From NCBI GenBank assembly GCA_000002445.1, contig CH464491.1, positions 3,552,001 through 3,616,000 of the forward strand: DNA of 64,000 nt, given 5' to 3'. Made by a program: the position numbers and the translations under genes. Of this stretch, positions 55,300 through 57,200 are shown piece by piece. Every line of letters starts with the position of its first letter. Within the stretch, counting starts at the first letter, position 1. Origin of the DNA: Trypanosoma brucei. Lineage: Eukaryota. The notes below the pieces were generated by a model. It ran no database searches. It had not been told where the DNA came from and was given only the letters and a program-made list of their open reading frames with translations.

Positions 55300-57200
55300 C
55301 GGAGAACATTTCGGCATTTTCTTTTGCTCCCACGCGTAGGTTTACCGTTAAAATGTTGTCACTTTTATCCCACGCGACTAATGCCGTGCGGTGGCCACAG
55401 TAATTAACTTTGGCATTCGCGTCGATGCCTGTTTCGGTTGTGATTCAATTGCGATCGGTGATTGAATTCAGTTTTGAGATTCAGCCTCTTACCCAACGTT
55501 CTCTGGTCGTGGCCACTCCTGGCGGTGGGGCCCGTTTGCGCTCGATTTTTTGTTGTTTCCAGTTGCGGTAAGTGTGTAGGGGCAAATGTAAATTTGCATC
55601 CCTTGGTTGTGCATTAGTTTAGCCGATATCCCCTTATGCTCTCCTCTTCGTGGGTCGTTTGTTACGCCCGTATTGTCCCTGATCCTGTATCGGCGCCCGT
55701 AAGCGCTTGAAAGAGTGCGCTTTTCCGATGTTCCGGAATCTAGATGTCATTTTGCGGTCTGCTTATTCACTGTGCTGGTGTGGTTTCCCTAGAATGTGGA
55801 ATACCCCCTCCACAAAAGAGAGGGGGTATTCCAACGCGATTCTTTCGGCTGCAAGAACTATTCTCGTCTAAATCGGCGTCGCGATGTGCACGTAGCCTAA
55901 TTTGCGTTATTTCAACGGAGCTGTGCGACCTCAGGGGCGGTTTCGGCCACAGGAGCCAATGCGGACACACCCTTTTCAGCCGAGGGGGCGCAAGGTCGTT
56001 GCCGCCTCCCCTTTCCGTAGTAACTGATAACCGTCCGCCCACCCCATTGGAAAGGACTTGGACGCATGGAGATGCTCAGCTTTGTTCGTGACGATGCACT
56101 GAGCCCTCATGCCGCTTTGGGGGTGGATTCCCCCGTCATGAGCTGGCGGGTGCGGGCTGAATTGGGTATTAGTCCAGTGGTGCGCGCCCCTCTTGGGGTG
56201 ATGCGGACATCTGCTTCTCGTTTGGTGAGGGCGCTGCAGCTGTCATTTGTTTGAAACGCTGGGAGGCAACCAGGGCCCGCGGGGTTGTCAACTGAGGCGG
56301 CGCCGCCTTTGGTCGCGACGTGGTCACATGCGCGCACCCAGTGGTTACTGGACACCGCCCGACTTTGGTGTGCACTTCCGCTATGGACAGGGCAGGTTGG
56401 TCATACGTGTGTTTCCGGGATGGGCGGACGAGAGTGACTGTTTTCCGGCATCTACCTTGAAGGCAAAGGCTCCACGATATTTTGGAAAACGGTACGCGGG
56501 GGACATCTTTCGTGGCCATTGGGGAGGTGGTTCGCCACTTCTTTAATGCCTCTGGTGGCCAGGTTGGGGTCCACATCAGGTTTTGTGAGAACGTACTTGA
56601 TCAGGCGGTATCACCCCCTTTTTCCGCCACTGCTTGCGTATCTTCGGTGATGGAGCAGCACCCCGGCGTCTGCGGCCACGGGCCTTTTTGCAGGGATCTT
56701 CGCACATGTGACAGCAAATGCACTCTCAGTGAAATACGCGGAGGGTTGGGTATGTTTCTTGAATGTTCTGTGCGACCTACTGTCAAGTTTGAATCGTTTA
56801 CAGTTCTAGTTTGTTCACTAGATGTGTCAGTTAGCACGACTTCCCTCCTTTTTGTGCCCATTAAAATTATTCATTAGAAACCACCACTTGTTGCTCTGTT
56901 TTAGTCCGGCACCGCTCGTTGACGCATTGGTTGACCTGCTTTCTTGGTCGCTTGCCCGGGTACCATCGCCCTGGCAGCAGACAAGCCACCCCCTCGAAGT
57001 GTCGTTGTATGATTTAGCACTTACTTATTGCGACTGTTCGAACATTGCTTTTCTTTTCAGAAGGTCCGCATCGGCTGCACGGCAGTGCTTTAGCTATTTT
57101 GAGTCAGTGCATGTGTGGTTTCCACCACCTCGGTGTACGTGCAGAGGGATGGCACTCGGTGATGGGGGTCGCGGGTGAATAAAAGACGCATTTAGCTGAT
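55300..57200 (+). other. G/T-rich, relatively GC-rich island inside a 5.7 kb ORF-poor gap. Candidate internal transcription start region, degenerate element or ncRNA locus.
   Basis: Only overlapping 60-135 codon ORFs on both strands, in successive frames, with non-protein-like composition. Plus strand is G/T-skewed (gggtggattcccccgtcatgagctggcgggtgcgggctgaattgggt...). Shares short motifs with the SSR plus arm: TGTAGGGG, and an 8-mer CGCGGGGG (ACGCGGGGG except for the final base). Confidence 0.3.
55796..55832. repeat. Perfect 14-bp inverted repeat (tggaataccccctc / gagggggtattcca) with 9-nt spacer
   Basis: Read directly: tggaataccccctc-cacaaaaga-gagggggtattcca. Can form a 14-bp hairpin/cruciform. 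Confidence 0.8.

Follow-up and report, generated by a model that had tools for sequence, protein, structure and literature searches.

A GC-rich island upstream of Rab4 in Trypanosoma brucei, within a head-to-tail boundary of polymerase II units and probably part of an initiation zone

Introduction

Between the genes of a receptor-type adenylate cyclase and Rab4 on chromosome 11 of Trypanosoma brucei TREU927 lies a gap of 5.7 kb, part of which, at 55,300-57,200, is rich in GC. The question that this locus raises is whether such an island belongs to a start region for polymerase II (pol II) or is the relic of a decayed element. The window is the whole stretch of DNA that was analysed, with a length of 64,000 nucleotides (Tb927_11_01_v4:3,552,001-3,616,000); window and chromosome positions differ by an offset of 3,552,000, and the coordinates of ODC fit the window exactly. 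The flanking genes and the region used for comparison are the following:

48639..52283, plus strand: ACP5, receptor-type adenylate cyclase (Tb927.11.13740), from Pfam and the gene identifier
57983..58579, plus strand: Rab4 (Tb927.11.13750), from the list of open reading frames (ORFs) and gene identity; it heads a published 'Internal' unit
42000..43300, no strand assigned: divergent strand-switch region (SSR), the comparison region, with a GC content of 0.59 and, at 42,909-42,925, a plus-strand G17 run

Both genes that flank the gap are on the plus strand, and the arrangement of a divergent SSR, in which the flanking genes are on opposite strands and point apart, is not present at ACP5/Rab4 in T. 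brucei. The best explanation of the findings as a whole, with a probability of roughly 0.6, is that the island lies within a head-to-tail boundary of pol II units and is most likely part of the initiation zone of the unit headed by Rab4.

Published transcription units and the first transcript

In Table S14 of Kolev et al. 2010 (PMC2936537), one row reads 'Tb11.01.5300 -> Tb11.01.5310 (+) Divergent' and the next row 'Tb11.01.5320 -> Tb11.01.6250 (+) Internal', so that the downstream polycistronic unit starts without a change of strand from the preceding one. Gene identity confirms Tb11.01.5300 as ODC, and gene order and serial numbering indicate that Tb11.01.5310 would be the ACP5 cyclase and Tb11.01.5320 Rab4. 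The units in this table rest on the enrichment of 5'-triphosphate RNA at sites that bear the histone marks reported in Siegel 2009 (PMC2936537), and they are resolved to the first gene of a unit, which places the start at any position in the 5.7 kb gap. An internal start upstream of Rab4 is thus already published in this transcriptome study, and the island is no new example of one. Its value as a discovery is small, as the published unit table with this start dates from 2010 and the occurrence of degenerate retroelements at the edges of units is well established.

The earlier note on this DNA had proposed a unidirectional pol II start, outside an SSR, upstream of Rab4, CDC50 and profilin. At the level of genes, the 'Internal' unit from Tb11.01.5320 agrees with such a start, but the word 'unidirectional' conflicts with the sense and antisense 5'-triphosphate reads that Kolev et al. 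observed at all putative sites of Table S14 (PMC2936537). Table S7 of the same study (PMC2936537) lists the first processed transcript past the island:

57403..57880, plus strand: Tb11.NT.169 (Tb927_11_01_v4 3609403-3609880)

This transcript starts 200 nt past the island, and its splice acceptor follows a T-run and AG at 57,385-57,402. The first splice acceptor is therefore downstream of the island, and no novel transcript is listed in Table S7 between ACP5 and 57,403. The island resembles known T. brucei start regions of the internal, head-to-tail type (Siegel et al. 2009; Kolev et al. 2010, PMC2936537) in its position between same-strand units, in the lack of processed mRNA upstream of 57,403, and in being broad and without a defined promoter motif. 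It differs from them in lacking the G- and T-run 10-mers that are enriched at start regions. Head-to-tail sites have been described as places of both termination and initiation that carry H2A.Z and R-loops (PMC6294496).

Base composition of the island

The part of the interval that stands out in composition is somewhat shorter than 55,300-57,200:

55450..56800, no strand assigned: GC-rich island proper, GC 0.50-0.61, with a mild plus-strand G excess and no recognisable coding or RNA content

These GC values were obtained in 300-nt windows and peak at 0.61 in 56,050-56,349; the values of 0.60-0.61 at 55.9-56.5 kb are the top of the plus cluster. With 500-nt windows, the island reaches 0.596, more than any other part of the plus cluster, whose mean is 0.479 (sd 0.045); this amounts to +2.6 sd and bears out the GC-rich island described in the earlier note. 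The flanks of the interval (55.3-55.45 and 56.8-57.2 kb) have an ordinary GC content of 0.43-0.49, and the GC level of the island equals that of the core of the divergent SSR (0.59-0.60).

The G/T skew reported for the plus strand is weakly distinctive. A mild G skew is present (GC skew +0.05 to +0.17 at 55.9-56.8 kb), but the AT skew, which is negative on the island, is so to the same degree across the entire gap and cluster. Likewise, the G+T content of 0.56-0.58 is within the ordinary range of the cluster (mean 0.547 +/- 0.026), with higher values in several ordinary intergenic windows. In the island core, runs of at least four G (10.0/kb) and of at least four C (7.5/kb) are both enriched, and this signal therefore reflects GC-richness and no strand-specific G bias. 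GC-richness and a mild G skew nevertheless flagged a gap that bears an initiation site, although the GT-rich hallmark is absent, and composition alone may assist in locating head-to-tail boundaries.

Resemblance to the strand-switch region and to start-region motifs

Start regions in T. brucei show sense-strand enrichment of 10-mers consisting of G runs, T runs and GT repeats (Wedel et al. 2017, PMC5579346). Of the 10-mers enriched at transcription start regions (TSRs) in Dataset EV1 of that study, 0/157 occur on the two strands of 55,300-57,200, while the SSR arm (42.0-44.3 kb) has 12, including the G17 run. G runs in the island do not exceed 5, and GT repeats, long G or T homopolymers and G-quadruplex motifs are all absent from it. 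The likeness to GT-rich dispersed promoters (PMC5579346) is thus confined to a mild sense-strand excess of G and T, while the 10-mer count and a G+T content within the cluster range set the island apart from them.

The two short motifs that had been noted in both the island and the SSR arm, and for which chance had been considered, do occur (TGTAGGGG at 43173 and 55575; ACGCGGGGG at 42906 and 56494), and their sharing is due to chance: the island and the arm have 37 8-mers in common, compared to 29.6 +/- 6.8 in shuffles and up to 39 in other windows. Run as blastn and k-mer counts, the comparison of 55,300-57,200 with the SSR arm gave chance-level similarity only, and blastn of the gap against the entire window at word size 7 found no similarity to the arm beyond chance. 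The proposed resemblance to the SSR plus arm therefore fails beyond GC content. With motif sharing explained by chance, and an island that is neither GT-rich nor SSR-like, the arguments first put forward for a start region do not hold, and the case for one is carried by the published units.

Coding and RNA content

The earlier note had also described pseudo-ORFs in successive +1 frames with non-protein-like translations, and this description is accurate. Five plus-strand ORFs follow one another in this way (55744-56091, 56066-56254, 56247-56546, 56482-56877 and 56822-57178). Such a chain hints at a frameshifted pseudogene of a cellular protein on the plus strand, and the modest surplus of stop-free stretches of at least 80 aa (9 in the island, 4.5 +/- 1.8 in shuffles) points the same way. 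However, this mild excess is found on both strands, and the minus strand holds ORFs as long as those of the plus strand, as is expected of GC-rich DNA. A codon-usage signal is absent from the ORFs (mean LLR/codon -0.08 to +0.15, compared to 0.18 in real genes), and the plus-strand frames and ORFs have no match in Pfam or PDB. A 135-aa minus-strand ORF, searched with HMMER against all 1.84 billion representatives, matched its own orthologue alone. A decayed copy of the neighbouring cyclase was considered and rejected, as tblastn with the cyclase protein gave no match in the gap. Given the missing codon signal and the empty Pfam and PDB searches, the frameshifted pseudogene is rejected as highly improbable.

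None of the island ORFs had an exact counterpart in the protein collection, and the island gave no match in searches for structured RNA (Rfam, with both gathering and E-value cut-offs) or for tRNA. The sole extra match in the scan of 1.84 billion proteins was P0242, a bacterial-looking repeat protein, with an E-value of 4e-4. A perfect 14-nt hairpin is present at 55,797-55,833; in two other strains a SNP disrupts it.

A degenerate retroelement in the gap

The left part of the gap holds a degenerate retroelement (DIRE) on the minus strand, the presence of which is certain:

53598..54767, minus strand: DIRE reverse-transcriptase (RT) remnants, ingi/L1Tc-related, with frameshifts and stop codons, found by tblastx, tblastn and profile HMM

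The RT identity was settled with ingi and L1Tco DNA queries from the supplement of PMC4035085 together with ingi-clade proteins. In tblastx, the T. vivax ingi gave collinear HSPs on the remnants (sum E 4e-16), and tblastn with 120 ingi-clade proteins reached a best E of 2.9e-20. An ingi profile HMM matched the remnants at profile positions 247-306, 425-517 and 530-666 (E 9e-6 to 1e-18), and shuffle z-scores against diverse RTs were 10-26. Pfam gave no match on the six frames of the gap or on the stitched RT fragment, genuine RT remnants included, and its negative results therefore weigh little here. The stitched fragment also gave an empty result in a word-indexed protein search and noise only in PDB phmmer.

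The extent of the element beyond the RT remnants is less clear. Pr77 (77-79 nt) is a hallmark of the 5' end of ingi/L1Tc-related elements (PMC4035085, PMC1874656, PMC8190864), and a candidate is present in the island:

56066..56148, minus strand: candidate Pr77 hallmark of the DIRE 5' end, reading ..ATGACGGGGGAATCCACCCCCAAAGCGGCATGAGGGCTCAGTGC.. and marginal by itself
52575..56148, minus strand: putative DIRE in its full length of about 3.6 kb, with uncertain boundaries; the 5' third is without detectable endonuclease and the 3' end is set at the A-rich tail candidate

When a Pr77 profile built from 14 sequences was run with nhmmer on both strands, the best match in the window was at 56,139-56,066 (E 0.056, 8.7 bits), with an envelope of 56,142-56,050 on the minus strand; read by eye from the sequence, the candidate may reach 56,148. 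It sits 110-170 nt from the 5' end extrapolated via the collinear RT matches. At the other end, a plus-strand CT/T-rich tract at 52,575-52,625 is a candidate for the A-rich 3' tail. No remnant of the APE endonuclease was detected in 54.8-56.1 kb by Pfam, tblastn with APE-containing proteins, profile HMM or L1Tco tblastx, and no duplicated flank of 7-11 nt was found as a target-site duplication. With a probable 5' end near 56,148, the element would lie under the left ~45% of the island. For the right half (56.15-57.2 kb), no match was obtained.

Compared with described DIREs (PMC4035085, PMC1874656, PMC8190864), the element is alike in its minus-strand RT remnants at 53.6-54.8 kb, in a candidate Pr77 at the extrapolated 5' end and in its location at a unit boundary, which is typical of such elements; it differs in the missing endonuclease remnant and target-site duplication, its certain part lies outside 55,300-57,200, and the right half of the island does not belong to it. 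The suggestion that the interval is the relic of a GC-rich element is therefore partly upheld: a minus-strand DIRE is present in the gap, with a probable 5' end in the island, but 56.15-57.2 kb is without a match and the certain part of the element is outside the interval.

For the unmatched right half, a second and more decayed ingi-type element, on the plus strand at about 56.2-56.9 kb and head-to-head with the first, was considered. One T. vivax RT gave a single-frame tblastn alignment of 172 aa at 56,338-56,790, a 'PGxxHGxFxxDL...LSEI' match at 56,662-56,844 was found in 13 proteins (E 0.002-0.006), and two T. vivax queries had shuffle z-scores of 5.5-6.2. These matches are, however, the best among 120 related queries. 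Nine other ingi-clade RTs, including those that are not from T. vivax, were at shuffle level (z -1.2 to 1.8), compared to z 10-26 with all RTs for the minus-strand remnants. Pfam was empty, and the ingi profile HMM had no plus-strand match there up to E 10. With no profile match and nine RTs at shuffle level, the second element is not robust; it was rejected and is considered improbable.

Divergence between strains

Between T. brucei strains, no stretch diverges faster than the island, which has 18.4 SNPs/kb against 6.5/kb outside (P ~1e-6), a difference of about threefold. Because of this density, the sequence of the island appears to be without constraint. Divergence is ordinary in the DIRE RT region (7.7 SNPs/kb). 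At the divergent SSR, the comparison covered T. equiperdum OVI, which is almost identical to the window.

These values bear on the main rival explanation, according to which the island is a decaying relic, made up of the 5' portion of the DIRE and unidentifiable junk, that has no role in initiation, with the start elsewhere in the gap, for example at 57.2-57.4 kb. An evolution about three times faster than that of the neighbours is expected of unconstrained sequence, and the certain DIRE with its extrapolated 5' end inside the island, the absence of TSR-enriched 10-mers and the mild surplus of long stop-free stretches on both strands would all fit an inert relic. On the other hand, simple neutrality does not account for 18/kb when the RT region of the DIRE itself is at 7.7 SNPs/kb, and 54.8-57.2 kb is without detectable retroelement similarity save for the marginal Pr77 match. 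In addition, start regions in T. brucei are broad, and a start near Rab4 would probably still span the island. An inert relic is therefore held to be rather unlikely. Should raised divergence between strains turn out to be a general property of start regions, initiation-associated DNA damage would have an evolutionary signature that can be measured.

The initiation zone and the position of Rab4 in other trypanosomatids

In the preferred reading, in which the island belongs to the Rab4 initiation zone, the gap is where the short two-gene unit of ODC and ACP5 ends and where the long unit that Rab4 heads begins. We infer that the island is part of a broad, motif-poor zone, with open chromatin carrying H2A.Z, H2B.V and H4K10ac, in which starts would be dispersed and probably bidirectional; the first trans-splice site in use is the one at 57,403. 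The minus-strand ingi-type DIRE fills the left of the gap, with its decayed 5' end probably under the left part of the island. The gene-level resolution of the unit table, by which the start could also be at another place in the gap, the 0/157 10-mers, the ordinary G+T content, the marginal Pr77 match (E 0.056), the missing endonuclease remnant and the differing partner clusters described below count against this reading.

The position of Rab4 in related species indicates how such a start could have arisen. Rab4 opens the plus-strand cluster that follows a divergent strand switch in T. vivax, T. cruzi, T. theileri and L. major, and the genes upstream of it are on the minus strand (Pfam-supported FYVE, Peptidase_M8, Rtf2 and LRR). 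Since Rab4 is first after the switch in these four other trypanosomatids, the 'internal' start of T. brucei is best read as ancestral. The divergent SSRs of these species have the same position relative to Rab4, a hypothetical gene, CDC50 and profilin, and mark where this conserved unit begins; T. brucei differs in its head-to-tail arrangement, with ACP5 on the same strand, and no sequence similarity of the gap between species was found in DNA or tblastx comparisons. The minus-strand partner clusters upstream of Rab4 are different in every species compared, and the ancestral arrangement on that side is therefore not reconstructable.

Strand-switch regions are reported to contain species-specific genes, and ODC to have been acquired horizontally (PMC4413820). 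The T. brucei start may accordingly be the ancestral Rab4 start, kept after lineage-specific genes, namely the horizontally acquired ODC and the GRESAG4-type cyclase, had settled upstream of it in the same orientation. The synteny suggests that such arrivals can turn what was an ancestral strand-switch start into an 'internal' one, which fits the view of strand-switch regions as birthplaces of new genes.

A more far-reaching form of this scenario can be put forward tentatively, as possible but doubtful. The head-to-tail boundary at Rab4 would be a fossil divergent SSR, with an initiation zone that has been fixed relative to Rab4 since before the split of Leishmania and Trypanosoma, without conserved sequence, and that has outlasted the arrival of ODC and the cyclase. 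The Pr77 end of the old minus-strand element may supply the antisense arm, and the roughly threefold surplus of substitutions between strains would be a mutational footprint of initiation, left by way of open chromatin, R-loops or DNA damage. A minus-strand ingi-like element is also present upstream of Rab4 in T. theileri and, weakly, in T. cruzi.

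Published transcription units and the start upstream of Rab4

The island under study (55300-57200) is a GC-rich interval in the 5.7 kb gap between the receptor-type adenylate cyclase ACP5 and Rab4, within a cluster of plus-strand genes to the right of a divergent strand-switch region (SSR). The ODC open reading frame Tb11.01.5300 is placed at Tb927_11_01_v4:3,596,283-3,597,620 (Kolev et al. 2010 Table S1, PMC2936537), and its length equals that of the window ORF 44,283-45,620. The window therefore corresponds to Tb927_11_01_v4:3,552,001-3,616,000, and the island to Tb927_11_01_v4:3,607,300-3,609,200.

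Features of the locus (window coordinates; genes on the plus strand)
42-43.3 kb, divergent SSR
44.3-45.6 kb, ODC (Tb927.11.13730), Pfam ornithine/arginine decarboxylase
46150-47398 and 47516-48446, novel processed transcripts Tb11.NT.167 and Tb11.NT.168
48,639-52,283, receptor-type adenylate cyclase ACP5 (Tb927.11.13740)
52,284-57,982, 5.7 kb gap without credible ORFs
57,983-58,579, Rab4 (Tb927.11.13750)
58,884-59,669, hypothetical gene
59,933-61,006, CDC50
61,516-61,968, profilin

The published map divides this region into three transcription units.

Transcription units (Kolev et al. 2010 Table S14, PMC2936537)
Tb11.01.5280 to Tb11.01.4720, minus strand, Divergent
Tb11.01.5300 to Tb11.01.5310, plus strand, Divergent
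Tb11.01.5320 to Tb11.01.6250, plus strand, Internal

Tb11.01.5300 is ODC; from the parallel numbering and the gene order, we infer that 5310 corresponds to the cyclase (13740) and 5320 to Rab4 (13750). With this mapping, the published units already put an internal pol II start between the cyclase and Rab4. The boundary has thus been known since the 2010 table, and DIREs (degenerate ingi/L1Tc-related retroelements) are well known at unit boundaries. In the same study, enrichment of 5'-triphosphate RNA was seen at every site earlier marked by variant or modified histones, those internal to units included, with reads in both sense and antisense (PMC2936537). The earlier note's proposal of a start region is hence corroborated by the unit map, but not by the sequence features on which it relied, and its description of the start as unidirectional conflicts with the antisense reads.

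Novel processed transcript Tb11.NT.169 (3,609,403-3,609,880; window 57,403-57,880) lies in the gap, and Table S7 contains no novel transcript from the cyclase up to 57,403 (Kolev et al. 2010, PMC2936537). This places initiation upstream of position 57,403, itself 200 nt past the island. Table S14 resolves the start to the gap as a whole, not to a position inside it. The reading we prefer, at a probability of roughly 60%, is that the Rab4-headed unit would begin in a broad initiation zone containing the island, at a head-to-tail boundary, that the left part of the island would rest on the decayed 5' end of a DIRE on the minus strand, and that the island sequence itself would have no specific function. 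The main rival, which makes the island an inert relic and sets initiation elsewhere in the gap, is considered rather doubtful.

Two side observations concern the neighboring unit. ODC and ACP5 form a two-gene polycistronic unit (44283-52283) between the divergent SSR and the internal start (Table S14, PMC2936537), and Tb11.NT.167 and Tb11.NT.168 fall in the 3 kb ORF-less stretch between them (PMC2936537). The longest ODC ORF encodes 445 aa and begins 22 codons 5' of the 423-aa database protein (window 44283-44348); Tb11.01.5300 is in the list of misannotated start codons, with a splice site at 3,596,332, window 44,332 (Table S1, PMC2936537).

Conservation of the Rab4 unit

What is added here to the known start is small, namely a synteny reading and an excess of divergence. 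T. b. gambiense DAL972 chromosome 11 and a second T. brucei-group assembly encode the identical Rab4 protein, and its orthologues were traced to contigs of T. vivax, T. cruzi, T. theileri and L. major.

Genes upstream of Rab4
T. vivax, three genes on the minus strand followed by a 6.9 kb gap
T. cruzi, minus-strand genes, a FYVE protein among them
T. theileri, mainly minus-strand genes, a GP63 peptidase among them
L. major, minus-strand genes, Rtf2 and an LRR protein among them

In all four species, the order Rab4, hypothetical gene, CDC50, profilin matches that of T. brucei, with Rab4 leading the annotated conserved genes of its strand; in T. theileri, a called 168-aa plus-strand ORF (9,236-9,742 of the locus sequence) lies immediately 5' of it. 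This conserved order indicates that the unit start directly 5' of Rab4 is conserved across trypanosomatids, whatever lies beyond. The upstream partners differ among all species and have nothing in common with the T. brucei window, so the ancestral state upstream of Rab4 cannot be reconstructed. In T. brucei, two lineage-specific same-strand genes, ODC and a GRESAG4-type cyclase, precede the Rab4 start; in the other four species, the 10 kb preceding Rab4 contain neither ODC nor ACP5. Salivarian trypanosomes are considered to have acquired ODC horizontally, from a vertebrate-like source, and strand-switch regions are described as harboring species-specific genes (PMC4413820). Most simply, the "internal" start of T. 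brucei would be the ancestral strand-switch start kept in place.

Ingi/L1Tc-like sequences on the minus strand were also seen upstream of Rab4 in T. theileri (2396-4737 of the locus sequence, profile E 6e-37) and, as a weak match, in two T. cruzi locus sequences (L005 and L006, both at 3098-3271, E 2e-4). Their orientation relative to Rab4 is the same as that of the T. brucei DIRE, with which they may share descent, or they may be independent insertions.

A degenerate retroelement in the gap

Minus-strand translations at approximately 53.7-54.3 kb resemble non-LTR reverse-transcriptase (RT) motifs, which Pfam, PDB and word-indexed protein searches did not confirm. T. vivax ingi and T. congolense L1Tco sequences (PMC4035085 supplement) were used as queries. 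With the T. vivax ingi, a tblastx search of the whole window detected three matches in collinear order, containing "SALCKLMER" and a "GxxxxSVxGxxxF" motif.

Matches to T. vivax ingi (tblastx, sum E 4e-16)
54,689-54,594, minus strand
54,286-54,125, minus strand
54,008-53,862, minus strand

Ingi-clade proteins fetched with the ingi RT match 54,689-53,538 (E as low as 2.9e-20), and a profile HMM from 97 such proteins matches 54,767-53,598 (E 9e-6 to 1e-18), with no further significant match in the window. The RT at 53.6-54.8 kb also scores z = 10-26 above shuffles with eleven ingi-clade RT proteins (T. vivax, T. congolense, T. equiperdum, T. conorhini, Strigomonas and unnamed sequences). Judged by its sequence, this minus-strand element is a DIRE.

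The collinear matches, with ingi and L1Tco coordinates, extrapolate the DIRE 5' end to approximately 55,980-56,040. The best match to Pr77, the hallmark of this end, on either strand of the window is at 56,139-56,066 (minus strand; profile of 14 hallmarks), 110-170 nt from the predicted end, although marginal alone (E 0.056). Searches for an endonuclease-domain remnant and a target-site duplication found neither. A candidate A-rich tail lies at 52,575-52,625, a long CT/T-rich tract on the plus strand about 300 nt past the cyclase stop codon, which may represent either the tail of this DIRE or a polypyrimidine tract of the ordinary kind. The DIRE certainly occupies 53.6-54.8 kb and probably spans about 52.6 to 56.15 kb, in which case the left ~45% of the island would be DIRE.

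The remaining 56.15-57.2 kb, including much of the GC peak, matches nothing. A second, plus-strand DIRE was suggested by an RT-like alignment at 56,338-56,844, and is unlikely: with the ingi profile HMM the plus strand gives no hit there, the scores of nine other ingi-clade RTs (non-T. vivax ones among them) stay at shuffle level, and Pfam returned nothing.

Composition and promoter likeness of the island

The GC-rich island is real, with GC above 0.50 at approximately 55,450-56,800 and a peak of 0.61; its 500-nt maximum of 0.596 is the top of the plus cluster (mean 0.479, sd 0.045). The G/T skew that had been described is present but unremarkable, with G+T (0.56-0.58) within about 1 sd of the cluster mean and exceeded in ordinary intergenic windows. 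GC skew in the core is +0.05 to +0.17, and negative AT skew is common to the entire gap and cluster. Both G-runs and C-runs are enriched, which indicates GC-richness rather than strand bias.

The five plus-strand ORFs claimed to follow one another in successive +1 frames are indeed present, an arrangement that a frameshifted cellular pseudogene could leave. This origin is unlikely: they lack a codon-usage signal and Pfam or PDB matches, and ORFs of equal length occur on the minus strand. HMMER with the 135-aa minus-strand ORF 56,169-56,576 against 1.84 billion representative proteins yielded nothing beyond the T. b. gambiense orthologue of this ORF and a single spurious repeat protein. Rfam and tRNA searches of the island region found nothing. 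In T. b. gambiense, three short genes are annotated in the gap (L001 7755-8102, plus; 8180-8587, minus; 9595-9903, plus), two of which are window ORFs 55744-56091 and 56169-56576; all three lack Pfam matches, a codon-usage signal and relatives, and resemble the spurious gene calls that GC-rich DNA gives. A perfect 14-nt inverted repeat with a 9-nt loop lies at 55797-55833 (TGGAATACCCCCTC / GAGGGGGTATTCCA); it is disrupted by a SNP at 55,801 in two other strains without compensating change, and is therefore probably not functional.

Likeness to the SSR does not hold, as the island aligns nowhere to the SSR or other parts of the window, and GC level is the only trait shared with the SSR core. 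The two motifs said to be shared with its plus arm occur where reported, but are at chance level by 8-mer counts (37 common 8-mers; shuffles 29.6 +/- 6.8; other cluster windows up to 39). According to Wedel et al. 2017 (PMC5579346), T. brucei start regions are dispersed promoters in which long G or T runs and GT repeats make up the 10-mers enriched on the sense strand. When the window was scanned with all 157 10-mers of Dataset EV1 (PMC5579346), the SSR plus arm (42.0-44.3 kb) contained twelve, a G17 run among them, and the island none on either strand; it thus falls outside the "GT-rich promoter" class of that study, and the sequence argument of the earlier note falls. This absence is compatible with initiation, because the 10-mers are present in only some of 199 regions. 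The G17 run (plus strand, 42909-42925, within the divergent SSR) accounts for most start-region 10-mer matches in the window and is the sole canonical G-quadruplex-type motif detected on its plus strand; a search of the island for such motifs found none.

Divergence between strains

TREU927 was aligned over 16 kb with T. b. gambiense DAL972 and a second T. brucei-group assembly. Of the alignment columns in the 1.9 kb of the island, 35 are variable (18.4 per kb), with a peak at 56.0-57.0 kb, compared with 6.5 per kb in the rest of the alignment (binomial P ~1e-6) and 6.7 per kb in other non-coding sequence (P ~1e-5). The DIRE RT region varies at an ordinary 7.7 per kb. Set against this rate, the island sequence seems free of constraint and may be hypermutable. 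T. brucei initiation sites have been reported to carry R-loops (PMC6294496), and loss of RNase H2A is reported to lead to DNA damage during transcription initiation (PMC6753483). Speculatively, an origin of the island divergence in R-loops or initiation damage would fit.
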